Shown piece by piece: positions 37,501 to 63,111 of a stretch of DNA of 64,000 bases. The DNA is from Macrostomum lignano (taxonomy: Eukaryota): the NCBI GenBank assembly GCA_002269645.1, contig NIVC01001321.1, forward strand, positions 250,525-314,524. The letters are read 5' to 3'. Numbering within the stretch: position 1 is the first letter of the stretch; each line of letters starts with the position of its first letter. A program made the position numbers and the translations under genes. The notes under the pieces were generated by a model, which saw only the letters and a list, made by a program, of their open reading frames with translations, ran no database searches and was not told the DNA's origin.

Positions 37501-40500
37501 CTGTCTGCTTCTGTGCCTGTCTGCTGTGTCTGTTTGCTTCTGTGTCTGTCTGCTTCTGTGCCTGTCTGCTTCTGTGTCTGTCTGCTTCTGTGCCTGTCTG
37601 CTTCTGTGTCTGTCTGCTTCTGTGTCTGTCTGCTTCTGTGCCTGTCTGCTTCTGTGTCTGTTTGCTTCTGTGTCTGTTTGCTTCTGTGCCTGTTTGCTTC
37701 TGTGTCTGTTTGCTTCTGTGTCTGTCTGCTTCTGTGCCTGTCTGCTTCTGTGTCTGTCTGCTTCTGTGCCTGTTTGCTTCTGTGTCTGTCTGCTACTGCT
37801 TCTGTGCCTGTTTGCTTCTGTGTCTGTCTGCTTCTGTGCCTGTCTGCTTCTGTGCCTGTCTGCTGTGTCTGCTTCTGTGCCTGTCTGCTTCTGTGTCTGT
37901 CTGCTTCTGTGCCTGTCTGCTTCTGTGTCTGTTTGCTTCTGTGTCTGTTTGCTTCTGTGCCTGTCTGCTTCTGTGTCTGTCTGCTTCTGTGTCTGTCTGC
38001 TTCTGTGCCTGTCTGCTTCTGTGTCTGTCTGCTTCTGTGTCTGTTTGCTTCTGTGTCTGTTTGCTTCTGTGCCTGTCTGCTTCTGTGTCTGTCTGCTTCT
38101 GTGCCTGTCTGCTTCTGTGTCTGTCTGCTTCTGTGTCTGTCTGCTTCTGTGCCTGTCTGCTTCTGTGTCTGTTTGCTTCTGTGTCTGTTTGCTTCTGTGC
38201 CTGTTTGCTTCTGTGTCTGTTTGCTTCTGTGTCTGTCTGCTTCTGTGCCTGTCTGCTTCTGTGTCTGTCTGCTTCTGTGCCTGTCTGCTTCTGTGCCTGT
38301 TTGCTTCTGTGTCTGTCTGCTTCTGTGCCTGTCTGCTTCTGTGCCCGTCTGCTGTGTCTGCTTCTGTGCCTGTCTGCTTCTGTCTGCAAGTCTGCTTATC
38401 GTATGCCCAAAAGTGGGATTCGAACATGGCCGAGACTTCACTCCCCCCCCCGCCGCCAGGTGGAGCTCACCCCGCAGGGCACCCTGGCCGAGCGGATCCG
38501 GGCGGGAGGCGCCGGCATCCCCGCATTCTACACGCCCACCGGCTACGGCACGCTGATCCACGAGGGCGGCGCGCCCATCAAGTACGGCGAGTCCGGCAAG
38601 TCCGTGTTGATCGCCAGCGACCAGCGCGAGGACCGCCAATTCGATGGCCTGAACTACGTGCTGGAGCGGGCCATCACAGGCGACTTCGCGTTGGTGAAGG
38701 CCTGGCGCGCCGACAAAGCGGGCAACCTGGTGTTCAGGAAGACCGCCAACAACTTCAATGCGCCCATGTGCACCGCGGCAAAGGTGACTCAACTGTGACC
38801 TGACTCACTGGGTATTTGACTTGTGCTAACCCACCTCCTCATGGCTATCTGTGGGTATAGGCGCAACTTTTAAAATCGACCGCCCGTTTCTACTGGCAAC
38901 ACATGTCACGTGACAGGGCAGTCACGTGACAACTGGTTTGTCCAATAGCGACTTGCGTGTGTGTTGCAAGTTGAAACGGCCGGGCGAAATCGGAAACTTG
39001 CATATCTATGGGTATCCGTCTCTTCTCATGGGTATCCGTCTCTTCTCATGGGTATTTGTCTCTTCTCATGGGTATCTGTCTCTTCTCATGGGTATTTGTC
39101 TCTTCTCATGGGTATTTGTCTCTTCTCATGGGTATCTGTCTCTTTTCTCATGGGTATCTGTCTCTTCTCATTGGTATCTGTCTCTTCTCATGGGTATCTG
39201 TCTCTTTTCTCATGGGTATCTGTCTCTTCTCATTGGTATCTGTCTCTTTTCTCATGGGTATCTGTCTATTCTCTCATGGGTATCTGTCTCTTCTCATGGG
39301 TATCTGTCTCTTCTCATGGCTATCTGTCTTTCCTCATGGGTATCTGTCTCTTTCCTCATGGGTATCTCCATCTCAGACATCGGGCACTTAACCCATTAAC
39401 CCCATAGCAGAATTGCATTCAACGCCCCTTCCCTTTCAACGCAGGTTACCATCGCAGAGGTTGAGGAGATCGTTGAGACAGGCGAGATCCCACCTGAGCA
39501 GGTGCACATCCCCGGCATTTACGTCAAACGGCTGCTGCGAGGCGCCGCCTACGAGAAGCCAATTGAGCGGCGAACTCTGCGCAAAGCCTCGGGGCCCGCC
39601 GGGGGCGGTGAGTGTGGGGAGAATCTTTCTGTATGCTTTTTTCGTATACCTTCCGCTTCAGCAATCATGAGCATTGCCATTCAGTAATCCTAAAATCATC
39701 CGTCACCAAATCCTATCATTAAGATCCCCAAATCCCACCATTAAGATCCCCAAATCCCAACCATTGAGATTCCCAAATCCCACCATTAAGATCCCCAAAT
39801 CCCAACCATTGAGATTCCCAAATCCCACCATTAAGATCCCCAAATCCCAACCATTGAGATTCCCAAATCCCACCATTAAGATCCCCAAAATCCCAAAATC
39901 CCACCATTATAAATCCCAAGAGCCCTCGCTATAAAAAATCCTTCCAGAGGTCGGCGAGTCGTCGCGCGAGCGCATCATTCGCCGCCTGGCGCTGGAGTTC
40001 AAGGACGGCATGTACGTGAACCTGGGTATCGGGATGCCGATGCTGGCCGCCAGCTTCATCCCCGCTGGCATGAAGGTGCATCTGCAGTCGGAGAACGGCT
40101 TCCTCGGCCTAGGCCCGTATCCCACAGCCGAGCAGGTGGACCCGGACCTAATCAATGCTGGCAAGGAGACGGTGACGGCACTGCCAGGAGCTGCCTACTT
40201 CGACTCGGCGTCCAGCTTCGCCATGATCCGCGGCGGCCACATCGACCTGACGGTGCTTGGCGCGATGCAGGTGTCAAAGACTGGCGACCTGGCCAACTGG
40301 ATGATTCCTGGAAAGCTGGTCAAAGGCATGGGCGGCGCAATGGACCTGGTGGGGGCGCCGGGGACCAAAGTGGTGGTCACTATGGAGCACTGCGCCAAGG
40401 TGAGGCTGCGCCGCTCGATCGCTTCAGGCTTCAGCGGGTGCAGGAGGTGGAGTTGCAGAAGTCCAACTTAGGGCGGTGCTGCAGCTTCGAGGTTACAGGG

Positions 40501-47432: not shown

Positions 47433-50400
47433 TTAAGGCACAAAGCGCTCAGGAGCGGATCGGTTTCTGAGGCTCCTTCTCAGCTGAACGGCTTCTTCAG
47501 GCACGGGTGTCTGAATCCCTGCGACTGGCTCGTTTCCGGTTTCTGGCACGCTGTTAGTCTCATCTTCGTCCTCCATCTCGAATTCCGATGGCCGGGGGGC
47601 CAGTGGGGCAAGGTGATTCGTGCTTGCAAGGCGAAGCCCATCGTCAGCGAGGATCCACGCCGTGTTTTGACCTGCCGTCATCACGAACTTTGCCGGGTTG
47701 CCGACTGAGGAGCTGCTGGGCGCATAGATCACGCTGTCACACTGTTCGAAGTTGGTCACCACCGGGACTCTGAGTCGCCGTCCAAAAAGAATTTCGGCTG
47801 GGCAGCAGCCCCGCGAAGAGGCTGAGTTTCTGTGGTGCAGGAGGACCTTTTGCAAGAAGCGGCTAAACTCCACGTGCGTAATTTTTTCAGACCAGGCCCT
47901 TAGTGCGGACTTGACGGTCTGAACGGCCCTTTCTGCGGCTCCATTCGCCTGCGGGTAATAGGTAGGTGACTCGAGCTTCTTGGCACCATTGGCGCGGAGC
48001 CACGATGTGAGCACTTCAGTGGTGAACTCTGGGGCGTTGTCCGAAACCACCAGCTCGGGGACGCCGAACCGTGTGAATACGGTACGCAGGCACTGAATGA
48101 CTGAATCAGCTGTGCGATCGCGGCAAGGAAATGCTTCTATCCAGCCGGAAAAGGAATCCACGATGACCAGGATGTTTCCAGCGCCTTTTACGTATGCCCA
48201 GTCCATGTGTACGCGCTGGAACGGATACGTTGATGGAGGCCAGCGATCCCTGTCGTGGCCGAGTTGAGGCCGAAGCCTGCAGCAGTCTGGACAGCGTCGA
48301 ACAAACTGGGCAACGTCCTGTTGCATTCCGGGCCACCAGCAGCTGGTAGACATTAGACTGTGCGCTGCATGCATGCCCGTGTGCGTGTCGTGAATGGCAT
48401 CGAACGCGGCCTTGCGCAGTCTTGGTGGAATGAAGACTCTTCTTTGCATGTAGAGTAGTCCATTTTCTAGCGTTAGTTTGTTTGAGACTTTTTTGAACTG
48501 CGCTTCTGCCTGGCTGCAGTTTCGCCAATCGCCTTGGCGGACGCGATTGAGAATTCTGTGGGTGAGTGCGTCTAACTCCATCTCCGCTGTGATTCGTTTA
48601 GCGTCGATCACAGGTGATTCAAATTCGATTGAATTAATCGTCTCGAATGTGGCCTTGTCGTCTGATGAGCTGTCATCGAATCTGAGTCTGGATAAGGCAT
48701 CTACGTGTGGAATGCTACTGCCACGTGCATACTGAATTCGGTAATCAAACTGCATCAGGTACAAGGCCCAGCGTCCGATTCGGGCTGAGGCATCCACTGG
48801 GACGCCGGATCCGGAGCCAAAAAGTCGGATGAGCGGTTGATGGTCTGTGCGTATTGTGAATGGTCGGCCATGGCAGTAGTGCTTCAAGCGTGCGATGGCC
48901 CAAACAATAGCCAAGGCCCCCCGCTCGATGTTAGAATAATTGGATTCAGCGGAGGACAGGCTACGTGACACGTATATCACGGGATGGCCATCTTGTGTTG
49001 CCACGGCGGCGAGGGCTCCTTTGGAAGCATCAGTGGTCAGCGTCAGTTCCTTTGTCAAGCTGTAGGGCTGGACCACAGGCGCTGAAGCGATTTCCAGCTT
49101 TAGGCTCTCGAACGCTTTGGAACACTCCTCCGACCACACGAACGGAACGCTTGCTTGTCGTAGTCTATTAAGCGGTGCAGTTTTGCCTGCAAAGTTTGGG
49201 ATGAGGCGGCCGAAGAAGTTTACCAAGCCAAGAAAGTGAGCGAGCTCTGATTTATTTGCTGGCGGGCACACATGGCGAATTTTCTCCACTAGGCGATCAT
49301 CGGGCTGAATACCAGCCGCGGATATTCGGAAGCCCAAGAACGAAACCGAATCGCAATAGCTGATGCTTTTCGCTTCGTTGATAGTCACGCGCTTCTCAGA
49401 TAGACGCGTTCGCACAGCAGCGAGGCGCTTCTCCAGCGTGGGTTTGTCTGGCGCGTGAATGAGAATGTCGTCTTGGTAGATAAGCAGTCCTTTGATGTCT
49501 CCTAGAATGGATTCCATGGTGCGTTGGAAGATGAAGGAGGCGTTCTTCATCCCCATTTGCAGCCGATTGACACGATAGAGCCCGCGGGACGTGTTTATTA
49601 CCGATAGGTCTCTCGCGGCTTCATCAAGCTCGATCTGCCAGTACGCCGAACGTAGATCGACTGTGGCGAAAGTTTTGGCGTTCTTTAGCTTGGAGAACAT
49701 GGTCTCGATGTGTGGAATGGGATATGAGTCTGATTTGATCTTCGAATTGACGTGCACGCTGTAGTCCGCGCACATGCGGAGAGTTCCATCCTTCTTCTTT
49801 ACCCACACTACGGGTGAAGCGTTACTAACCGGACCCTCTGTTGGCTCGATGACACCAAGTTGGTGGAGGCGATCCAGTTCTGCGCTGATTTGGCTTTCTA
49901 GGGCGAGTGGCACAGCACGAGCGCGGCAAAATTGTGGTTTAGCACCGTCCACCAGTTCCATTCGGGCCTTAACGCCTCGGATACAGGGCAGAGGTTCGAC
50001 GGCAGTTTTTTCTGCTTGAACATCGCTGGCATGGAAGACACCGTCAGACTCGAGGAGGTCGCGGCCAAGCAACCCGTACGTCTTTTCCGAAGAGACTACA
50101 ATCAGTTCCACTGGTTGAAGGCGTCCTCGTAGCTCCACAGTTGCAGTCACTTTACCAAGCGATTTCATGACGTGCCCGTCGAAGGCCTCCAAGCGCCGAT
50201 TGGAACGCATTAGTGGTGGCTTACCCAGCAGAGCCCATTGCGCACTGGAGAGCACGGAGACTGATGCTCCCGTGTCGATCTGCATTTTGAAGGGCTTATC
50301 GTTGATGCGCACAGTCTCCGTAGATACTTCAATCGAATTGAGCGCATCGATGAGATGCAGTACGTCTGTTTTTTGTTGGGCGGAATCTGAATCCTCCTCA

Positions 50401-50754
50401 CCAGTAGTCGTGTAGTGCATGGATCGAGACTTACAAACAGTACTGAAGTGGTTTTTCTTTCCACACTTGGAGCAGCTTTTTCCGAAAGCGGGGCATCTGC
50501 CTTCGGGGTGTGACTTGCCACAGTACCGACAGGCGCTGATTGTGCGATGAGAGCTTGCATGCTGCGATGTCTCAGGCCGACCGGATTGAGCGTAATGAAG
50601 GGTGGCTTCGTAGGTGCATGGTGATTTAGATTGGCCGGTTGCCTTGTCCATCTGCCTGGCGACGAAGCCATCGACTTGCTCTAGGTTGCGCATGAAGTCC
50701 GTGATTTCTGAGACGGACATCAGTTTCAGCTGCATTGCTTCGAGTACCCCTTCT
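47433..50754 (-). CDS. Ty3/Gypsy gag-pol polyprotein, 5'-truncated (Zn knuckles, protease, RT, RNase H, integrase)
   Basis: CRYCGKSHPEGRC and CSKCGKKNHFSTVC; IDTGAS; LRMCADY, VDLRSAYWQI, YQDD; TDAS..TDH..DALSR; HHCC plus D-D-E (HMDW, SDNAPEF, AERAV). The frame stays open to the Polinton junction. The RNase H EKE motif reads ERG. Confidence 0.95.
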
Positions 50755-50952
50755 AGTAGTAGGGGAAATGTGGACTCTGCCGCAGGAATTTCCGTGGGAA
50801 AATCACGGGCCTATGTGTGTAAACATAGCGCCTATGTAAATGCATTGGTGGACTCTGCCGCAGGGAAAGCCATGGAAATTCCATGGGGCCTTAGTGAGAG
50901 AACATAGGCCTATGTTTTTCTATTGCTGTATGTCTGCTGCAGTGGTTTAGTC

Positions 50953-50960
50953 TATATAAG
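50953..50960 (+). promoter_or_regulatory. Canonical TATA box upstream of the first Polinton ORF
   Basis: TATATAAG, 86 nt upstream of ATG 51039. Confidence 0.5.
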
Positions 50961-51038: not shown

Positions 51039-51803
51039 ATGGACATCGGCGAAGGATATAAACTCCAAATACAGGAGTATGAAGGAGTTATGTTCATTGC
51101 TATCAGAAAATTTTACCGACATGGCAGCACTGCGAGTTTGAAACCTGGAGTCCCCGGCTTCAATTTGAACATCCGTCAGTGGGAGAAGCTCAAGGAGTTG
51201 AAGCGATCACTTGTCAAGGCGGCCTTGGACAAACAGCCAAAGGTTGTCAAACTCGGCTTCGATAAGTTCATCGAAGTGAAAAACGGCATTATCTGGTTAA
51301 AGCGATTGCCGGAGGACTGCTGCGACGAGTTTCTTAAGCGGAACACCGTGCCGCTGACACCGCCGCTGTGGCGAAAGCTGTGGCAGTACGCGGATTGGAT
51401 CGACGAGCAGCTATCGGCTCCACGTGAGATTTCCGATGCATACGAGCTGGAGTCGGGATCTTCCTCCGACAGCATCGAAAATGAAGACGATGCTGGCGAA
51501 AACGCGGAAGAGACCAAGCCGGTAGTGAAGGCGGAGGACGATGCTGCTGCTGCTGCTGGCGAGGCTGGCATGCCATCCAATCTGCAAATCGACACAGCGT
51601 TTGCCACTTCAACGCCTCTGCAACTGACCAAGCCAGCAGCTGGAGCGATTCCTCGGCAGGACACTGATCTGCAAGAGGACCCAGTCTGGTACCAGTTCCG
51701 AGCTCAAGCAGCCGCCGCTGAGAACGCCAGGAAACGCAAGCAGCCGCCATTCGCTCTGCGCAGATTGGATGCCATGAAGCTGCCCAGGCCGTGCTTCGAC
51801 TGA
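51039..51803 (+). CDS. PC4/Sub1-like ssDNA-binding protein with acidic low-complexity tail
   Basis: IGEGYKLQIQEYEGVMFIAIRKFY..LKPGVPGFNLNIRQWEKLKE aligns by eye to the PC4 core (IG..RYVSV..FKG...IDIREYW...KPG.KGISL...QW..LKE). A weaker second repeat follows. Confidence 0.8.
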   Translation: MDIGEGYKLQIQEYEGVMFIAIRKFYRHGSTASLKPGVPGFNLNIRQWEKLKELKRSLVKAALDKQPKVVKLGFDKFIEVKNGIIWLKRLPEDCCDEFLKRNTVPLTPPLWRKLWQYADWIDEQLSAPREISDAYELESGSSSDSIENEDDAGENAEETKPVVKAEDDAAAAAGEAGMPSNLQIDTAFATSTPLQLTKPAAGAIPRQDTDLQEDPVWYQFRAQAAAAENARKRKQPPFALRRLDAMKLPRPCFD

Positions 51804-51970
51804 TTGCAGACCCTCTGACATTGAGACAAACTCTGTGCTACGAGCTATTTATCCAGACCTGCTTTCCATCTCTTTGTTTGAAAAAATATATATGCTTGCT
51901 TTCACATGCGCTATGCATTTTCAATGTCTTAAGAAAACCTAAAAATAAAAATGTTTCTTTGTTTCCGAAA

Positions 51971-53038
51971 ATGGAAAAAATTTATTTCAACCCAAATCAG
52001 CCTGCGAGCTATTGCAGTTCTTCAAAACTGCAACCTGAACTGCGAAAAAGAGGCGAGCATATTGGAGTCAAGAGCATTGAGCAGTGGCTAAGTCAGCAGC
52101 CAGTACACACTCTGCATAAGCCAGCTAGAGTACGATTTCCAAGGGCGCCAATAATAGTGAGAGCCATTGATGATCAGTGGGAGATGGATCTGGTGGAAAT
52201 GATTCCATTTGCAAAGTATAATCGCGGGCATAAATACATTCTCACCTGCATTGATGTTTTGTCTAAATTTGCAATGGCCAGAGCACTGAAGTCTAAGAGC
52301 GCGGCAGAAGTGAAATCTGCGTTTGAGAGCATGCTGAAGAGCTCAAAGCGGCAGCCGCGCACTGTCCGCACAGATCAGGGAAAGGAGTTTGTCAACGCAA
52401 TTTTTCGCCAGTTCTGCATAGACCGGGGGATTCTGGCGTTTCCAACTAGCAGTGTGCACAAAGCAGCCATAATTGAAAGATGGAATCGAACTTTAAAAAG
52501 CAAGATGTGGCGTTACTTTACTCACAACAGCACTCTACAATGGCTTGATGTGCTGCCTAAACTGGTCAAGTCCTATAACAATACTTTCCACAGAAGCATC
52601 AAGACTACACCAATGAATGTCAGCAAAGCAAACGAGACTGAAGTGTGGATGAACCTTTATGATGGGAAAGCGATTGAGACAGTTGAGAAACTGAGAAAAC
52701 CGAAGTTCTGTGAAAACCAATCAGTGCGGATTTCCAATGCACCCAGACTCTTCAGGAAGGGATACAAGGCGAACTGGAGCGAAGAGGTGTACACCATAGT
52801 GTCTAGGGCACCAAAGCATTATCCCTACATGTACAGGATTCGAGACATGAAGGGGGAAGACATAAGAGGCCTCTTCCACGAGCATGAGCTGCAAGCTGTT
52901 CCGGACTCGCAGCGGCTGTATGTAATCGAGAAGGTTCTGAAGACTGAGAAGCGGAAGGGTAAGATCCGATATCTCGTCAAGTGGGCCGGCTACAAGTCCA
53001 CTGACTGGGTGGATGAGAAGGACTTAAGAAAAGTGTAA
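51971..53038 (+). CDS. Retroviral-type (rve) integrase with C-terminal chromodomain
   Basis: WEMDLVEM / RTDQGKEF / IIERWNRTLK DDE triad; chromodomain YVIEKVLK..RYLVKWAGY...WV. The true start is inferred at MEKIYFNP. Confidence 0.92.
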   Translation: MEKIYFNPNQPASYCSSSKLQPELRKRGEHIGVKSIEQWLSQQPVHTLHKPARVRFPRAPIIVRAIDDQWEMDLVEMIPFAKYNRGHKYILTCIDVLSKFAMARALKSKSAAEVKSAFESMLKSSKRQPRTVRTDQGKEFVNAIFRQFCIDRGILAFPTSSVHKAAIIERWNRTLKSKMWRYFTHNSTLQWLDVLPKLVKSYNNTFHRSIKTTPMNVSKANETEVWMNLYDGKAIETVEKLRKPKFCENQSVRISNAPRLFRKGYKANWSEEVYTIVSRAPKHYPYMYRIRDMKGEDIRGLFHEHELQAVPDSQRLYVIEKVLKTEKRKGKIRYLVKWAGYKSTDWVDEKDLRKV

Positions 53039-53068: not shown

Positions 53069-53878
53069 ATGAGAAGCATCATCATTTGTAGCGAAAATGC
53101 TGAAGGTACTCCTAGTGACTTTCATTTTCACCTGCCTTCATCTATTTACTTGGATCGAAATGTGGACTATGAGGCAGGTCTGGCTGAAATCCATCTGCCT
53201 GCTGCATGGTTCAATGTTGACGAGCCTTACTGCTTCACTGTCTCAGATGGAAGAGAGCATGAGGCCCTGGTTCTTCAACCCGGACGCTTTGCTAGAGTGG
53301 AGGAACTGGTGGAACGCCTGAATGAGCTGCTGGCCAACTCTGAGTCACTGTTCTTCGATGCAATGAGCGAAAGGGAGTCTGAAATGGAAGCTGATGAGTC
53401 CGGTTTAATGGGGCGGAGCAGCGCTAGAGATATTGGCATAAAGTTTGAAATCCAAGAGTTGAGAACAGTAGTGCTCAACAACACGGCTCGAGCAGAATTG
53501 TTCCTTCCATCAAGTAAAATTCTGCAGTGGCTGGGATTCGGAAACCAGCCTGTGAAGATCCCACCCGGACGGCAAGTGTCACTCTGCTGCATCGGTTGTC
53601 CGCCCACCAACCTGATCAACTTGCACTGCAGCATTGTGGAGCGAACAAACTGTAACTGGAACTCCGTGCTGCGAACTGTGAGCATGTCATCCGATGTCGA
53701 ATGGGGCAGCTACATGAGCAAAGTGTTTAAGAAAGCAATTTTCTTCCCGATTCAGAAAGCTAATTTTCTACATGGCATTAGATTTCAACTGCGTGACATC
53801 TTTGGCTACTCACTGACTGCTCGGAGCAGCAGCCCTGTTCTGCTCACAGTTCATATTCGGGAAAGGCTAATACAATGA
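53069..53878 (+). CDS. Minor capsid (penton-like, PX) protein
   Basis: TPSDFHFHLPSSIYL...YEAGLAEIHLP N-terminal signature and C-terminal IRFQLRDIFG..LLTVHIR. Confidence 0.8.
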   Translation: MRSIIICSENAEGTPSDFHFHLPSSIYLDRNVDYEAGLAEIHLPAAWFNVDEPYCFTVSDGREHEALVLQPGRFARVEELVERLNELLANSESLFFDAMSERESEMEADESGLMGRSSARDIGIKFEIQELRTVVLNNTARAELFLPSSKILQWLGFGNQPVKIPPGRQVSLCCIGCPPTNLINLHCSIVERTNCNWNSVLRTVSMSSDVEWGSYMSKVFKKAIFFPIQKANFLHGIRFQLRDIFGYSLTARSSSPVLLTVHIRERLIQ

Positions 53879-54285
53879 ACTACCAACAGCTGATTCGTCA
53901 GTATTCAGGGACTCTGGCAGGAAGCCAAAAGCCGGCGCTCTATGGCTGTGGGAGTTTTCCAGGAATCATGACTTACCAGCCTCCTCCAGAAGCTTCCACA
54001 AAGTCAATATCGCTATCAAAGCCAGCCCATACCACCGCCAGCGGTAGCAGCAGCAACAGCAGAAGCAATAGAAACAGACCAAAGCAGCGACTAGTCAAAC
54101 AGGGCAGTAAGAAGCAGACAAAAAAGAAGAAAAAGAGTAAGACGGAGAAATCACCGAAAAGAAGCCAGTCAGGGCGAAATAAACCTAAGAAAGGGAGGTC
54201 TAAAACTCAAAGCAAGAAAACAGGCAAAGGAAAGCAAAAAGTGAGCAAAAAGACTGTGAAACGTGTTCTGGACTCGCTCTCATAG
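53875..54285 (+). CDS. Small Lys/Arg/Ser-rich putative core (DNA-condensing) protein
   Basis: 136 aa with a highly basic C-terminal half, located between the two capsid genes; LYGCG motif; ATGA overlap with the penton stop. Confidence 0.6.
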   Translation: MNYQQLIRQYSGTLAGSQKPALYGCGSFPGIMTYQPPPEASTKSISLSKPAHTTASGSSSNSRSNRNRPKQRLVKQGSKKQTKKKKKSKTEKSPKRSQSGRNKPKKGRSKTQSKKTGKGKQKVSKKTVKRVLDSLS

Positions 54286-54287
54286 CA

Positions 54288-55570
54288 ATGGCTTACGGAT
54301 TCAACCCGAGACTCGATTTGTTCAAGTCCCCCATGCTGCAGACTGCCATTGAAAAATCCACATATGTTGATATTCACCCCGTGAACTCTATTGCTACTAA
54401 CTCACCTATTGAATTCGACTGTCATCCATCGGCTGATGAGTACACTGATCTGCTGAGCTCATTCCTGTATATTCGCTGTCGCCTAGTCCGGCTTGGCGGG
54501 GCTTTGATGAGGGAGGAGGTTCGAAATGCCGATGGAGTTGTCACTGAGCGCAGAGACAGTGGGGTGCACCCAGAAAACTTTGTCCTGTCTACGGCATTCT
54601 CAGATGTAATCGTGAGCATCAACCAGCGCATTGTCTCAGGCGGAGACCAGCTCTACCCCTACCATGCCTACCTAAAAGCTCTCATGGCTCATCCGATGCT
54701 CAGCAGTTAAAGTTCTACCCCGCCGGATTCCTGGAACCCGAAACTGCTGCTGAGGGGCATGCCGAGAGACACAGGGAGTCCCGCTGGGTGGAGTATGCGG
54801 GACCGCTGCTCAGCGACATCTTCCAGTGTCCTGTTCTGCTGCTGAACAATTTACACCTGCACATCAAGCTGATGCCCAGTGATGCTGCATTCGCCATTCG
54901 AACCCCAGATGATAACAACACAGCCTACCGAATGGAAATCTCCCACTGCATTCTGAACCTGCGCCGAGTCAAAGTGGCGCCTCACATCAGCCTGGCGCAT
55001 GAACAGGGACTGACCAATCAGAACGCACTCTACCCCATCGAGCGAACCGAAATGCAAAACTTTATTCTACCCCAGGGAATTCAGTCAAAAAACATTGAAG
55101 GATTCACCCATGGCAAACTGCCGAAGTTCGTTATGCTGGTCTTCGTGAACCACCGAGCCTTCAATGGCCATCACCATTCCAGCCCTTTCGAGTTCCAGAG
55201 CTTCAACCTCAGCCAGCTAGCACTAAAGAAAGGTGGTGAAGCCATGTGCCACGCTGCATTTGCACCTGAGAATAATTCATTCGTGAGAGAGTACTTGCAC
55301 TACCTGAAAAGCTGTCAGTCAGCCAGCCCTACCAACTCGGTTCCGTGGGTCCCCTACCAGTTGTTCTCCAACGGCAACACAGCTTTCGCATTCGATCTCA
55401 CGCCTGAGGGAGCGGCCCTGTGGTACGGACAGAAGGAGGGCAATTTGCGGCTGGAGATTCGCTTCCGACAGGCCCTGGAGGAGCCTGTATCTCTGATTGT
55501 TATGTGCCTGTATGACTCACTGATTGAGGTCACCAAGCACAGGGAGATTCTGCTAGATTTTCCATCCTAG
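54288..55570 (+). pseudogene. Major capsid (double jelly-roll, PY/hexon-like) protein with one frameshift near 54688
   Basis: LDLFKSPMLQTAIEKSTYVDIHP..SPIEF and YPYHAYL continue in another frame as SSDAQQL..AGF..GPLLSDIF..LLLNNLHLHIKL..GKLPKFVMLVFV..FDLTP..GNLRLEIRF. One missing base restores a ~427-aa protein. Confidence 0.88.
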
Positions 55571-55593: not shown

Positions 55594-56112
55594 ATGGATG
55601 CTTTTCAACTGCTTAAACTGGCTAAAAGCTTTTTGCCACAAAATAACTGTTTAATTATTGTCTTGAATTCAATAAATAAAACATCTTATGCTTTAAACTT
55701 TATTCAGCGAGCAACTCTCAAAAGAAATTTATCTCGATGTAAGTTTATTTTCTTTCTGCTTCAGTACAGCTCATCCTTCGGTCACTGGGTGGTTTGTTAT
55801 GCTGATAAGGAGAATTCCATAGAACTCTTTAACTCTCTGGGCTGGGACTCCAGCACTTTAGAGATCATTCACAGAGCACTGAAATCCTTTTGGTATTCTC
55901 CATTCTACTTACGTAGCAATGTGAATCGAATTCAGAGCTGTGACTCTGCTAAATGCGGTTTGTTCTGTCTCTTGTTTGCCTATCAAAAGTTTCGTTTCAA
56001 GCGCTCGTTTGAGTGGGTTCTGCGGCACCTCCATGCAAATCAGCAGAGCCACTTGAATGAGAGAATGCTGCAAAGGTTTGAGAGTTGCTTAAGAAAAAAG
56101 AAATTTAATTAG
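55594..56112 (+). CDS. Adenain-like cysteine protease
   Basis: GHWV (His), FNSLG (Asn at the usual Asp position), IQS (Gln) and KCGLFC (Cys). Confidence 0.88.
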   Translation: MDAFQLLKLAKSFLPQNNCLIIVLNSINKTSYALNFIQRATLKRNLSRCKFIFFLLQYSSSFGHWVVCYADKENSIELFNSLGWDSSTLEIIHRALKSFWYSPFYLRSNVNRIQSCDSAKCGLFCLLFAYQKFRFKRSFEWVLRHLHANQQSHLNERMLQRFESCLRKKKFN

Positions 56113-56145: not shown

Positions 56146-56799
56146 ATGGAAACACGTGAGCGGATAAACTGTTATGATGTGCGCCTGCGACAGGGAAGCT
56201 GCATGATTGTCAGCGGGCCTACAAATGCAGGAAAGACAACCTTCGTGAAACATCTGATACAATACAAGGATGTCCTGTTTGATGTGAAGCCTGGGAGAGT
56301 TCTGTGGTACTACGGGATTTCACAAGCAGCACACTCTGAGCTCAGCAGTCTCGGCGTGCACCTGCAGCAGGGATTTCCCAGCAGTATCGAGACCGCACTG
56401 AGACCCAATGACCTGGTTGTATTTGATGACCTGATTGAAGAAACTTCCAATTCTGCTGCAATGCGAAATGTTTTCACTGGAATTGCCCATCATTTGCCCT
56501 GCTTTCTGGTTATGCTCACCCAAAATGTATTTTTTAAAGGGAAGGAGTTGCGAACAATGAGTCTGAATGCGATGTACTTTGTGATCATGAAGAACCCCAG
56601 AGACCAGCTGCAGATTGCAGCGCTGGGCAGGCAGTGCTTTGCTGAGAAGCCCGGATTTCTGCTGTCAGTGTTCAAGCACGTGACATCGCACGGCAGGGGA
56701 GCCTACCTGCTCCTGGATTTTCACCCTTCCACCCCTGATGAGCTGCGGGTCCGGGCTCGAATCCTGCCCAATCAGCGACCCCACCTGGTTTACACTTAA
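56146..56799 (+). CDS. A32/FtsK-HerA-type DNA packaging ATPase
   Basis: Walker A GPTNAGKT, Walker B LVVFDD, LTQN and KNPRD motifs. Confidence 0.92.
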   Translation: METRERINCYDVRLRQGSCMIVSGPTNAGKTTFVKHLIQYKDVLFDVKPGRVLWYYGISQAAHSELSSLGVHLQQGFPSSIETALRPNDLVVFDDLIEETSNSAAMRNVFTGIAHHLPCFLVMLTQNVFFKGKELRTMSLNAMYFVIMKNPRDQLQIAALGRQCFAEKPGFLLSVFKHVTSHGRGAYLLLDFHPSTPDELRVRARILPNQRPHLVYT

Positions 56800-56846
56800 G
56801 AATAACAGCCGAGATTTTGCCATTTGTTCTATATTCTGCAACACTA

Positions 56847-57164
56847 ATGATAATGGAAACCTTTGACTCACATGAAAGTTTGTTTGATGTTCTCGCGTCA
56901 CCGAAATATTCCATCAGCTTTAAACGTCTGTTGATCAGAGCGGGTCCAAAAGCCGTACGTGAATTTCTCATTGAGGCCTGCTACAACCTATTGCAAAACA
57001 CTCTGTCGTTCTCACTCACTCAAAAGGCAGCGCTGGTGAAGCAAAAGCAAATAATCCGCAAAATTTCTACACATAGAAGAACTGCGGATCTGCTAAATAC
57101 GGGTTTTATCAAAATTCTCTACATTCTAATAAAGCTAGTGAAGAAAAAGAAGCAAAATGAATAA
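56847..57164 (+). CDS. Small Polinton-type hypothetical protein
   Basis: EACYNLLQNTLSFSLTQKAALVKQKQIIRKI resembles the short helical ORF usually found after the Polinton ATPase (recollection only). Confidence 0.55.
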   Translation: MIMETFDSHESLFDVLASPKYSISFKRLLIRAGPKAVREFLIEACYNLLQNTLSFSLTQKAALVKQKQIIRKISTHRRTADLLNTGFIKILYILIKLVKKKKQNE

Positions 57165-57878
57165 GTTCTCAGAAATGGTTCTGATCCCCAAGTCAGAGTA
57201 CGACATGCTCACACAGAATTTGAAGCCAGTCGAGTCTGAAATGGACACTGCTGTGAGATATGCGCAGAGGAAATGCAATGATATTTTGCTTGCCGAGGAT
57301 TGCCCAGACGATGTGAAAGCTGCCATGTACCATGATGCGATGAAGAGTTTGCTGGCCAAGCGCAAGCGGACTGGAAAGGATGGTGCGGTACCTGCGAGTG
57401 ATGCAAAGATGCTGAAAACAGATATTGCACCAAGCAGCTGGGGGGAAAAGATCACCCAATCCGTGCCGCAGAAGTTTAAAGCGAGAGCCCGCAGTCTATG
57501 GGCCATCCTATCTGGCAATCCTCTCTGATTCGGGTGTCCGAAAATGGCGAGGCGCAAATTTCTGGGAAGACAATACCCTCCTCAAACATCCTGGATTTGT
57601 TTCACAGTGCGGTGAGGGATTCGAAATGTGCCAGCGAGCCGGTAGGCTGGAGTGAGTTTGTCTCATTGCTTCAAGACAAAAAGCTTAACATCCCAGCTTC
57701 GGCTATAGGAAAGTCAGTAAGGCAGCTAATTTCTAAACCGGCTGTTTCTCCAGAGGCCACCCCTGCACATCATACAGTTAAGGGATTCGGGAGTGGGAGA
57801 GCCTGGCTACACCTGAGCAGGAAAAAAAACTATTTAAGAAGGGGAACTGAGTCGGCTTCCCGACATCTTGCGTCTTGA
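57157..57878 (+). pseudogene. PZ-like Polinton protein split by a 2-nt (CT) insertion near 57524
   Basis: MVLIPKSEY..SVPQKFKARARSLW in one frame, then NGEAQISGKTIPSSNILDL..PVGWSEF..IPASAIG in the next. Removing CT from CCTCTCTG joins them. Confidence 0.7.
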
Positions 57879-57890
57879 AACCATCCGATC

Positions 57891-58736
57891 ATGAACTATA
57901 TTGACTTCCAAGGCTTCCCACGCGAGAGATCGAGCAGAGATTTCGTTGTGAAGGAGCTGGCCATTGCCCAAGTCCGGGCTGGCAGTTACCATATCACTCA
58001 TCACGTGTACGCCTCTCCGTTCTCATGGGACAGAATCTCACCTGAGATGCAAGTACATTACAGAAAGCTCTCAAAGAATTTGCATCATTTCAAGTGGACA
58101 GATGGATCCCGACCGTACATGCATTTGGCTAATGACATTCTAAACATTGCTTACGGTCCCACCTGGACAAGCGGGGTGAAAAAGTCCATCTTTCTGACTG
58201 AGCTGCTTGGCAGACAGGTGTACAACCTAGAGGATCTGGGATCACCTTTGATTCAAGCATCTGATACTGGTTGTGCAGTGAAAAATGTATTACTGTACTA
58301 CAACTGGCTGAAACCGAAGTTCTGTATCAACTTAAGAAGCGAGGTGTGCCCGCACCACTCAAAAGCTCGCAAAGACAGCACCACTGACAGAAAGGACTCT
58401 CTAAATGAGTACACCTGCGACAGCCCTGCGAGTGACCAATCTGGTCGGCGGCGTGGATCTGAGACTTGCTGGAGACAGGGGTGCCCAGTTGCCTCTGCGG
58501 GAACTGGCTCTCAGCATGGCTCATGTCATCTATCGCCCCGTCTGGCCCCGAGTGCTTATCAAGAGGATGCGGAGTCCCAGAGTGACTCTATTGCTCTATC
58601 CGACTGGACAACTGAGTATCTGTGGCGCCCGGAGCTACTCGGCCTCAGTCAGGGCCGCTCGTCGCTTCGTGGCTATGCTGCATCGCAGAGTGCCTGCTCA
58701 ACTGCTGCCTCATCAAACTGTGCATGTGCGGATTAA
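57891..58736 (+). CDS. DnaQ/DEDD-like exonuclease-family Polinton protein (conserved part ~aa 1-141) with a tail overlapping the TBP gene
   Basis: IDFQGF..FVVKELA..HHFKWTDG..YNLEDLGSP..CAVKNV..YNWL pattern recognised from Polinton accessory proteins. Confidence 0.55.
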   Translation: MNYIDFQGFPRERSSRDFVVKELAIAQVRAGSYHITHHVYASPFSWDRISPEMQVHYRKLSKNLHHFKWTDGSRPYMHLANDILNIAYGPTWTSGVKKSIFLTELLGRQVYNLEDLGSPLIQASDTGCAVKNVLLYYNWLKPKFCINLRSEVCPHHSKARKDSTTDRKDSLNEYTCDSPASDQSGRRRGSETCWRQGCPVASAGTGSQHGSCHLSPRLAPSAYQEDAESQSDSIALSDWTTEYLWRPELLGLSQGRSSLRGYAASQSACSTAASSNCACAD

Positions 58737-58968
58737 AACTATTACTGCGCATGGGAAAATTGACTTGTGCAGAGCACTTCCCCTCGCTAATCTTGTGAAC
58801 ACTTTACCAAGTGCTCAATATGAGCCAGAATCATTTTCTGCTTTGATCTGCAAACTAAGCTTCTGCAAATGCCTGCTTTTTCACAATGGCTCATTCGTTC
58901 TCAGTGGTGCAAAAACAATGAGCATGCTAATTTCCGACTTTTCCTTGCTTGTCCGTTTTCTGTGCTAA
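58405..58968 (+). CDS. TATA-binding protein (TBP)-like protein, core domain only, 187 aa
   Basis: Two TBP repeats: VTNLVG..L.ELA..IYRP.WPRVLIKRMRSPRVTLLLYPTGQLSICGARS...RAARRF and IKTIT..LPLANL..AQYEPESFSALICKL...LLFHNGSFVLSGAK. Compare canonical QNIV..[36 protein letters not shown]..AARKY and YEPELFPGLIYRM..LLIFVSGKVVLTGAK. Confidence 0.9.
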   Translation: MSTPATALRVTNLVGGVDLRLAGDRGAQLPLRELALSMAHVIYRPVWPRVLIKRMRSPRVTLLLYPTGQLSICGARSYSASVRAARRFVAMLHRRVPAQLLPHQTVHVRIKTITAHGKIDLCRALPLANLVNTLPSAQYEPESFSALICKLSFCKCLLFHNGSFVLSGAKTMSMLISDFSLLVRFLC

Positions 58969-59683: not shown

Positions 59684-62600
59684 TCACTCTAAGCAGTCCG
59701 CTGTCCTTTTCGGACTACCCCTGATTAACAGCTGAAAGTGGCCGAACGGAAGACTTGAATTCGAGCCAGTCCACGCTCGCTTGTCCTCCCAGATACTGAG
59801 AGCGAGCTTACGTTGCTCAATGGTGAAAACGCGATGTTTCTCACTTCCAATTCGACGAACAGTGAGCGACAGCTTTGAAGCCCCCTTGAAAATCTTGACG
59901 TAGTCGTCGTGGGAGACTTCATTCTTCAGCACGCTTCGTTGGATGCCTTTTGCTTTTGCTTTGCATGCCGCCGAGCTTTCAGCGAGGAAAGAATAGAGCT
60001 TGGGCCTTAGCAGCACCCACTCAATCTGTTGCAGTCCACCAGCTTCATCTTTAATGCAGCCTAGCTTGGCCTTTAGCCGATTCGAGAAGAGAGGATGATT
60101 AGTGAAAAAATTGGAGGTGTCCAAGAGGCCTTCGGCATGCAGGATTGGCAGCACTTCTCTCTGCAAACTAAGGTTCTCTAAGCTCAAAAACAACGAGTCT
60201 GTATCGCCACCGCAAACTCGAACTCTTGCTCCATCACGGAATTCTAGCATGGGTTTTATTTTGTCATAGTAAAGTCGATACATGATGATCTTGGAGCGAT
60301 CTAGAACACACTGCCCCATGAAAATTGGCGATCAAGAGTTACTTCGCGCTTTTGAAGCTCAAAGATGCTGAGTGACGGCGTAATGATTGTGAATGATGCG
60401 ACATTTGGTTGAGAAGAAACAGTCTTGGCTTTTTTCTTGTCACTGCACACTCTGATGTCCCGCCGCTTGCGCACGTTCTCCATTGTTTTGCCAAACAGGG
60501 AGTTATTTTTCAGTTTATAGAAATCCTTCTCGAAATCATTTTTCGCCATAGAGCGCTTCTCGCTATTCATCTTAATGTAGTCCGCGAAGACAGGTTCTTG
60601 CCTGAATTCGATCATCCTGTGGAGCCCATGCAACTTCATTCCGTGCGATAGATAGAATCGGAGAGCAGACGAGTGCAGTACATAGGAAAACTTGTTGTGG
60701 CATGTGAGCATTAATTTTTGTACTCCACGGTAGCGCGCAACGGTAGGATTCTCAGTCGTGTTCGCGTCGGGCTGCTGCTGCTGATGATGCTGAGAATGAT
60801 CATTGTCATGTTGAAGCAGTACCCATAATTCTCGCATGTACTGCGGAAATTCTTCAAAATTCGGACACCTTTTCTCTGGGGCGAATGGAAGATCCTCCGT
60901 TGCCGTGTGGATTTCGGCTGGGTAGAGCAAATCCGCTTCGACAAGGTAGCCGATTGGAGCGTCATCATCCAGGGAAAGAAAGCGGCACTCGGACCATGAG
61001 CAGAGCTCCTCTTGACTGAGCCAGCGAAAGCCACCAACAGGTAGGGGCATTGTGAGCGCATGACCGTAAAGATTATTAGCATCAACAGCCAGTAAACTCC
61101 TACCTGCTGGTTCATTATCATCATCGCTACTTTCGCTCTGGACATGATGTACATTGACAAAAGACATTCCACCCCGAATTCCTTTTTCAAACATTTTATA
61201 CATCTCGAGGTCAGTTAGCAGTTCGATCTTGACTTGAGAAGACTTTAGTGCAGAAGCGAATGATAGGCCTGGAGTTGACACAAAATGCACCGGATCTAGC
61301 TTGTCTTCCTGCAAACTCAGCCTTCGAAACCCTCAAAGATATCTGCTAGTTGCCTGATGTCCAGCTCCAAGTAGCAGAGCATGTAATCGCGCAATGTTGT
61401 AGATTCGAATTCAGTCCAGGCCTTCTGCGCATGCCGATACTCCGCCTCGGTACAGTGGCTGTTGGTGAGTCGGTTAAAAAAGCTTTCTACTTTTGGTAGT
61501 TGGCGATCATCAAGCACATTCAAATTCGAGAGATAATCATAAGGGAAAACTCCCTTACTAAACAGTACATCGCTTGAAAGATTTGGATACTTTGATCGCA
61601 TCGTCATGTCAAGCGTTGAGTCTGTGAAGATTGCAGGGGCTTCTGTCGACCGTCAGGGCAAATTGCATAAATAGCAGTTGTGGCAGAAAGCACTGCATTG
61701 CATAAATAGCACTGTGTGTCATCACTGTTTCTGTCAGCAATCTGATGACTAAACTCGGTATTCCAACCATAAACTTCACGAGCAAGACGTTCGAGTGAGG
61801 CCAAAAACTGTTTCACGACAGAATTCGGATTGGGTCCGCTGCAGAGGAAAACATCCTCACTCGGCCTCAGAATTTTGCTGCTCATACCCTCTCTTGGAAT
61901 AACAATGTAGCCAGCAGCTACAGGTACATGCTCAGTTAACTTGGTGACAGTAACTTCTCTTTCAGGCTCACTGGTTCACGTGGGGTGTTCAGAGCTTCAA
62001 AATCTGCGTAGACAACAAATGGGGGACTGATTGTCTTTTCCCAAGCCATGAACTGCATTGTGTTGCTACTTGCATCAGGCATGCGCTCCATGATGGCTGG
62101 TTTCAGTTGAGGATTGCAGCTGTCTCGATGCTGCTCCAACTCTTCCTGGATCGAAACGGAGAAATGCACTTCTCACACCATTTGCGATTCCTCAGACCTT
62201 TTTTGCTGTTCAGGAGCCGGTCCAGGTTCGAAACTGCACACCAGTGTCCAGTCCCACAATTCTCATCACCACCATCATCATCATCAGCATCATCGGAGCT
62301 GGAGTTGCGAAGCAAGAGTAGAGGAATAACCTTGCGAGAGGCACAAATCCCAGGAAGAGGCTGGCGAATGACATAGGCCTCATCATCTTCCCAGCTAAAA
62401 ACTGTGAAACAGATTTCGGAATTCTTTTCCTCTATAACGTCTAAATCGGAAATTGCGACTGGTAGTGCGTGCCGCTCAGATCGATTTCATCCAACCATCT
62501 GCTGTAAGTTGTTAGTCGATGGCAAGACTTCATCACACCAGGATCTCTGTGTGCAGGTAAGCGAGACAGGCAAACAGAAAGCAATTGTTTCCATCGCTCG

Positions 62601-63111
62601 GTGGGTTGATTATGGCCTTCTTAACGGCCAGCTGATTGGGCAAAGAAAAATTCGCGCATCGTCCACGATAGTAGCGAATGCGATCAGTGAGGGCAGAGCA
62701 CAGATCAAAATAGTTGATTTGCTCAACTATCCAACCGCTCCCATTTGAATTGTAGGCATCAATCTTGCGTTCCAGCTCAGAAAACTGCTGCAACCACCAC
62801 AATTCAAAATCTCTTAGATCAGAGAGAAGCTCAAGACCGCATGCGATCCACTTATCTTCTGCATTGATTACCGCAGCTTCCTTGATTCTCACCATTCTGA
62901 TGTTGAACTTGAGCTGCGCTCGAATAGAATTATTCTCGGATGAATCGAATCTCATCTCAACAGCCTGTAGCACTGCAAACTTCGTTGATGATAAAAAATG
63001 AAATGGCTCGAGACCTCTTGATGCTGGAGTGAAGCGTCTGACCTGCAGCGTGTCATCATGCGCACTAGCGTGAATAGCCGAGCTGAATTGAATGCCTGCA
63101 TGAATTAGCAT
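59684..63111 (-). pseudogene. Protein-primed family B DNA polymerase (pPolB), multiply frameshifted
   Basis: Segments carry NGSGW..KKAIIN..NNCFLFA, GHWCAV, VYADFEAL, KGVFPYDY, YLELDIRQLADIFE, GIRGG, DANNLYG, YKLKNNSLFGK, GDTDS, LRPKLYS and KAKGI across at least seven ORF fragments. Confidence 0.93.

Follow-up and report, generated by a model that had tools for sequence, protein, structure and literature searches.

The Polinton-type element present in the 64,000-nucleotide stretch of Macrostomum lignano DNA that we analysed (the window) carries the gene of a divergent TATA-binding protein (TBP), and sequence comparisons indicate that the Polinton lineage maintains this gene stably: it exists in many copies, it is under purifying selection, and a TBP-like gene is found in two further lineages. 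The element TBP is probably a late-promoter factor, predicted to read the word YTTAAGAA and to act via host TFIIB and RNA polymerase II.

The Polinton element and its TBP gene

The element begins with a left terminal inverted repeat of about 135 bp (50755-50888, forward strand) that starts with AGTAGT, and its right terminus lies beyond the end of the contig. Both termini, together with 6-bp target duplications, are found in two sister copies, the longest being of about 16.5 kb; a third sister has both termini and no clean target duplication. All the genes but one lie on the forward strand. The repeat is followed by the gene of a PC4-like protein (transcription coactivator p15; 51039-51803, 254 aa; Pfam PF02229, E 3.6e-6, above the cut-off) and by that of a retroviral-type integrase with a C-terminal chromodomain (51971-53038, 355 aa; Pfam rve E 2.5e-16, Chromo E 1.1e-4). 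The next three genes are a 269-aa ORF (53069-53878), likely a minor capsid protein from its position and size, a Lys/Arg-rich 136-aa ORF without Pfam match (53875-54285), possibly a core protein, and the likely major capsid gene (54288-55570), which is broken here, encodes 427 aa in sisters and is assigned from its position, size and conservation. Profile searches gave no library match for either capsid candidate, and the capsid candidate structure model has a pLDDT of 35. Further downstream are an adenain-type cysteine protease (55594-56112, 172 aa; Pfam Peptidase_C5 E 9.4e-5, above the cut-off), a P-loop ATPase, likely the packaging ATPase (56146-56799, 217 aa; Walker A motif recognised by sequence, weak P-loop matches), a 105-aa ORF and a 230-240-aa gene, here split into frames of 123 and 126 aa, both conserved in sisters (56847-57878), and a 281-aa ORF (57891-58736) whose final 110 codons are shared, in a different frame, with the TBP gene. 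A protein-primed-type family B DNA polymerase (pPolB) gene, in several pieces here, occupies the reverse strand (59684-63111; Pfam DNA_pol_B_2 E 8.9e-9). The pPolB, the retroviral-type integrase, the terminal repeats starting with AG, the 6-bp duplication, the adenain protease and the P-loop ATPase identify the element as a Polinton/Maverick. The first-pass annotation had placed the TBP ORF inside a virus-like block, and the Polinton genes around it, with the terminal inverted repeats and target duplications of the sisters, confirm this placement.

Some observations concern the surroundings and the copies of the element. A gypsy-type gag-pol ORF of 1100 aa (47433-50735, reverse strand) begins 20 nt from the left end, and the Polinton probably inserted into a retrotransposon. 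A host CoA-transferase exon is present at 40010-40471 of the window (Pfam E 5.8e-36). Contigs of four sequencing runs (RNA or DNA) covered 27 to 30 of the 30 bins of the element, intergenic ones included, with no splice-type joint. Two copies of the window element's lineage (L033/L034 and L035/L036) have a large internal pPolB deletion in common, and this shared deletion, the presence of both termini and the different target duplications suggest a non-autonomous derivative mobilised in trans.

The TBP gene itself (58405-58968, forward strand) is an intact ORF encoding a two-lobed protein of 187 aa. The Pfam TBP family (PF00352) matches two stretches of it (E 2.4e-21), and the 35 distinct PDB sequences matched by phmmer each contain a TBP. 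The AlphaFold2 model, built from a 15-sequence alignment, has a pLDDT of 92.3 and superposes on solved cellular TBPs with a TM of about 0.8, a Z of 20 and an rmsd of 1.8 Å over 173 residues, that is, better than on predicted viral TBPs (TM up to 0.73); a search of the ESM Atlas returned generic TBP clusters only. The two repeats and the saddle fold make the protein a member of the TBP family, and the intact two-repeat core recognised in the earlier reading thus withstands both profile search and structure prediction.

At least 152 matches to the element TBP were found in the genome, and 94 of the 150 matches listed are free of stops over at least 170 residues (manual count); the host TBP and the TRF2-like gene are each present at three loci, and these counts may therefore be about threefold too high. 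In the lineage of the window element (family A), the TBP gene occupies the same position in an identical Polinton gene order at all nine loci examined. A second TBP-bearing lineage, family C, accounts for 40 of 149 rows; its TBP, at about 35% identity, sits behind the same upstream gene as in family A, a PC4-like gene is present as well (PF02229 E 5.6e-5, below the cut-off), the capsid candidate is about 41% identical, and pPolB is placed differently. The third lineage, family D (91 matches), has a TBP-like frame in 7/7 capsid-anchored loci; this frame is of 159 aa with a TTG start, and its Pfam TBP match (E 1.2e-4) falls just below the cut-off. The survey of sister elements called for by the annotation thus places a TBP, or a TBP-like gene, beside Polinton genes in all three families. 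The family D ORF (L139:4638-5117) starts with TTG in each of the two subfamilies and is missing the greater part of helix 2, and the family D Polintons also carry a Fic-domain gene (L139:2265-3044; Pfam E 8e-14).

Relatives of the element TBP are present in other data sets (P0002-P0004, P0009, P0020, P0156, P0157, P0170 and P0171). The closest named proteins are those of Macrostomum lignano. Database entries that fuse the element TBP to other sequences (P0006-P0008) were not accepted as genuine proteins: they resemble gene-model artefacts of broken copies. Eight TBP-like proteins of 170-190 aa encoded on short contigs (P0022, P0030, P0083, P0093, P0107, P0111, P0116 and P0131) also have a Thr at the second strand-1 Asn position, and may originate in other mobile elements. 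No relative was found among viral contigs with the family alignment, two sister-group TBP-like proteins, a family C relative, the 281-aa ORF or the capsid alignment. A metagenome scan yielded 26 loci at 23-34% identity, beside which tblastn detected no Polinton genes; the seven loci inspected are prokaryotic or large-virus-like in look.

Selection on the TBP gene and its origin

The TBP gene has a dN/dS of 0.12-0.26 in 24 pairwise comparisons of family-A variants (72-90% identity), which have one common reference and are not independent. The element TBP is under purifying selection, and the check across copies proposed in the first reading excludes neutrality. The minor capsid candidate has a similar ratio (about 0.21), those of the integrase, the major capsid candidate and the ATPase are lower (0.06-0.14), and that of the family D TBP-like gene is about 0.07. 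Over 8.2 kb, the copy in the window shares 99.7% identity with one of its sisters; selection acted during the replication of the element, not after its insertion in the window. The earlier argument that the TBP ORF had stayed intact while pPolB decayed has to be abandoned as a sign of selection, because the breaks are specific to this copy: they affect pPolB, the major capsid candidate and the 230-aa gene, six genes besides TBP are intact (integrase, minor capsid candidate, protease, ATPase, 105-aa gene and PC4), pPolB is over six times longer than TBP, and in three of the nine family-A sisters it is uninterrupted, with an ORF of 1066-1200 aa.

Two features of the gene deserve mention beside these ratios. 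In some subfamilies (L020-L030 compared with the window TBP), the first half of the gene is nearly identical and the second half is saturated at synonymous positions, which suggests recombination between subfamilies inside the gene. Furthermore, the frame of the 281-aa ORF is open across 110 TBP codons. Of the 16 sites at which a T in third position would introduce a stop codon into this frame, none has a T, as compared with 29/93 other sites, and the figures for the overlap in family C are 0/15 and 21/85. The amino acids of the 281-aa ORF in the overlap are not conserved (apparent dN/dS 2-4), and the overlap looks maintained for its openness, perhaps for translational coupling.

The element TBP is 27% identical to the host TBP and 25% identical to the host TRF2-like protein. 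In a tree built from 51 of the about 170 rows available, families A and C group together in a single starred clade (97/94), separate from host TBP and TRF2, and the family D protein is a long branch of unsure placement. The residue pattern also differs from that of TRF2/TBPL1, and a tree in which the element protein is joined to host TBP can be rejected (AU p 0.0085). The protein could be viewed as a recently captured retrocopy of the host TBP, drifting as neutral cargo, since the element gene is intronless and the host TBP core likewise lies within one exon. The identity of 27%, the rejection of the joined tree, a dN/dS well below 1 and the presence of TBP in three lineages rule out this origin and leave it with practically no credit; the claim of a divergent TBP that is not nested among host retrocopies stands.

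Protein surfaces and the upstream word

The four DNA-intercalating positions had been read as W, Y, F and F. The last three are correct (Y65, F144 and F159), but the first Phe aligns without gap to Pro48 in phmmer, MAFFT and hhalign, Trp47 facing the preceding Arg. In these alignments the four positions thus read P, Y, F and F, and the reading of Trp at the first is rejected; Trp47 might still fill the Phe pocket in three dimensions. The strand-1 Asn positions are N12 (TNLV) and T112 (KTIT), as had been said. The element TBP thus departs from the four Phe and two Asn of canonical TATA binding. Sixteen family A/C sequences were compared with 140 other TBPs, the residue numbers being those of yeast TBP, obtained through an offset. 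N69, V71, E186, E188, F190 and F207 are invariant in the 16 sequences, all of which carry F116>Y, T124>C and N159>T and lack F99, and V161>T and K120>Q are found in 15 of the 16. The first stirrup and the basic residues of helix 2 are partly changed. The altered DNA face previously noted is therefore family-wide; its changes are fixed and not scattered, and as such would fit a changed specificity more than a decay of the protein.

The second stirrup, E140-P141-E142, is kept, and its TFIIB-contacting pair, E140 and E142, is present in 16/16 family sequences. In Ravarani 2020 (PMC7221094), these two glutamates are described as TFIIB/Brf contacts, including Brf1/Brf2. No element-encoded TFIIB was detected by Pfam among the window ORFs, and the TFIIB family gave 13 matches in the genome, a search that a very divergent TFIIB could escape, as against more than 150 for the element TBP; translation of six of these loci shows host TFIIB/Brf1-like genes. 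Co-folding of the element TBP and the part of host TFIIB encoded by a single exon, with neither alignment nor DNA, gave a score of 0.01, which speaks neither for nor against a contact.

The word YTTAAGAA occurs seven times on the coding strand of the element and once on the other strand. In six of the seven coding-strand cases it lies 43-74 nt before an ATG: CTTAAGAA precedes the integrase by 43 nt (51928-51935), the 269-aa minor capsid candidate by 46 nt (53023-53030, in the last integrase codons), the ATPase by 58 nt (56088-56095), the 105-aa ORF by 52 nt (56795-56802) and TBP by 74 nt (58331-58338, inside the 281-aa ORF), where it is the candidate promoter of the TBP gene, and TTTAAGAA precedes the 281-aa ORF by 58 nt (57833-57840). 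The seventh word, also TTTAAGAA (53726-53733), stands 149 nt before the basic 136-aa ORF. The PC4-like gene is preceded at 86 nt by a canonical TATATAAG box (50953-50960), a candidate early promoter; all these sites are on the forward strand. YTTAAGAA was picked after inspection of the gene starts, and the signal resides in position and strand, the count over the whole window being at chance (9 observed, 7.6 expected). In an unbiased count, the word is the top 7-mer, present in 6/11 upstream windows, a figure reached by none of 5000 random window sets. The exact word is missing in the window copy before the major capsid candidate, the protease and the 230-aa gene. None is found 3' of the TBP stop, so that the word tracks gene starts and not gene ends, and none in the terminal repeat.

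The codons that harbour the word are conserved where synonymous divergence is near 1. The rare TTA-AGA codons before TBP are kept in 22/22 rows of family-A variants, as compared with 87 of 230 cases of identity for the other Leu codons of the 281-aa ORF; TTA represents 13 of the 202 Leu codons across the element genes. The word codons before the 269-aa gene are the same in 6/6 diverged rows, family C included, and those before the ATPase in 4/4 rows, three of them at about 51% protein identity. Each lineage has its own word, almost entirely on the coding strand: YTTAAGAA in family A (7-8 per block), CTATAAGAA in family C (3, with one CTTAAGAA) and TAYAAATA in family D (8-9), the lineage with the most divergent TBP, where it often overlaps a stop codon and AATAAA and where CTATAAATA is a form that fits the canonical TATA consensus. 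No Polinton devoid of TBP was found in the genome, the intended control, family D, having its TBP-like gene in 7/7 loci, and word and TBP could therefore not be uncoupled. Of the two roles offered in the first-pass annotation, the driving of element promoters gains indirect support from a positional and strand-specific upstream word.

A model for element transcription and its relation to known systems

The model we propose combines a protein that keeps its TFIIB stirrup and a word placed before the genes. The host TBP would first fire the early genes that have a canonical TATA box, the PC4-like gene among them. The element TBP, predicted to favour CTTAAGAA over TATAAAAG, would then bind its private word YTTAAGAA and recruit host TFIIB and RNA polymerase II, and the recruited machinery would drive the integrase, virion and packaging genes as well as the TBP gene itself. 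Since the private word precedes the TBP gene, a positive feedback would result. We infer from the sequence patterns that the word is a core promoter and that the element TBP, not a host factor, is its reader; the early/late timing, the binding and the TFIIB partner would follow by analogy with herpesvirus late promoters. In its general form, in which every Polinton lineage would have a re-faced TBP matched to a TATA-variant word of its own and would plug into host TFIIB and Pol II, the model is a possibility to which we give slightly less than an even chance. The family D word could be explained by host TBP or by poly(A) signalling, because it is canonical and overlaps a stop codon and AATAAA, and a protein that has lost its first Phe and several basic residues could also bind DNA weakly or not at all.

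These same points feed the most serious of the alternatives, which we regard as unlikely: the word would be a promoter or start-site signal for host factors (TBP, the TRF2-like paralog or an initiator-type mechanism), and the element TBP would mainly be a decoy titrating host TFIIB or TBP inhibitors and so tilting transcription in favour of the element. An invariant TFIIB stirrup on a protein whose DNA face is deprived of one Phe and several basic residues would suit such a decoy, as would the canonical TATA box of family D, and the host TRF2-like gene could serve non-TATA promoters. But the DNA-face changes are fixed, with no drift, across lineages at about 35% identity, N12, V14, F144 and F159 never vary, and from lineage to lineage the upstream word changes together with TBP, all of which speaks against a decoy. 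A repurposing of the TBP fold for work outside transcription, such as the bending of DNA at the termini in replication, integration or packaging, the word being unrelated, is again improbable. PC4-like and TBP genes need not form a transcription module, and a PC4-like protein could be a single-strand DNA-binding protein in replication; the retention of the TFIIB-contacting glutamates in all 16 sequences and the terminal repeat without the word both argue against this repurposing.

It is still harder to believe that the element TBP recruits Brf1/Brf2 and Pol III or uses the transcription machinery of a helper virus. Virophages use the promoter words of their giant viruses, which provides a precedent for the latter, but we know of no helper virus here. 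As for Pol III, E140 and E142 fit it as well, since the same glutamates contact Brf1/Brf2 (Ravarani 2020, PMC7221094), but the long protein-coding ORFs contain internal T-runs and AATAAA follows the TBP stop. The late-promoter model that acts through host TFIIB and Pol II remains the reading we prefer.

With the Polinton, Maverick and adintovirus elements of Starrett 2021 (PMC8502044), the element shares pPolB, integrase, ATPase, protease, capsid candidates, terminal repeats and 6-bp duplications. In the accessible text of that paper, the discussion of adintovirus genes does not include TBP, whose name occurs solely as a label in the Figure 5 legend, for related elements; the eight vertebrate Maverick core genes listed in the available part of Barreat 2021 do not name it, and the portions obtained of 10.64898/2026.06.19.733378, PMC11161782, PMC10748475, PMC8097293 and PMC12220804 mention neither TBP nor TATA box. 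The earlier doubt as to whether TBP-bearing Polintons had already been reported is thus partly justified: a label exists, and in the full texts we found no paper describing TBP as an animal Polinton gene, which figures, supplements or Repbase may annotate. What is new here is the invariance of the TFIIB glutamates with no element TFIIB found, the PC4-like gene, and YTTAAGAA 43-74 nt before six gene starts. A conserved TBP and a candidate promoter word make it possible to test how Polintons express their capsid and integration genes and whether, in animals, they go through a genuine viral cycle. TBP variants that occur in nature, in a laboratory flatworm, and that combine an altered DNA face with an intact TFIIB stirrup are also useful for the study of TATA specificity.

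Compared with cellular TBP, TRF2 and TBPL1, the element protein has the same saddle fold, N12, V14, F144, F159 and both TFIIB glutamates; unlike cellular TBP, it has no N-terminal extension, its first Phe is lost, the second is a Tyr and the second Asn a Thr. The host TRF2-like protein shows another pattern of loss, with Arg and His at two of the Phe positions. Large dsDNA viruses also encode a two-lobed TBP proposed to serve their own genes, and structural matches are found in BFVD. According to Ravarani 2020 (PMC7221094), however, the TFIIB glutamates are mostly gone from their TBPs (about 40% conservation), and almost all of these viruses bring a TFIIB of their own, whereas the 16-kb integrating element keeps both glutamates and has no TFIIB among the window ORFs with which to form an orthogonal TBP-TFIIB pair. 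The late genes of beta- and gammaherpesviruses, as described in PMC12529657, rely on the TBP mimic ORF24 and a TATT word, and the logic is alike: host-like TATA boxes early, a private TATA variant with a viral TBP-fold reader late. ORF24, in the same source, is large, makes direct contact with Pol II together with five further viral factors and, as modelled, is not compatible with TFIIB, whereas the element protein is a bare TBP core and a predicted user of TFIIB. If the model is true, it would provide direct evidence of a virus-like early/late cascade in Polintons, and the element would possess a minimal orthogonal promoter switch, unlike the TBP and TFIIB pairs of giant viruses or the six-protein complex of herpesviruses.
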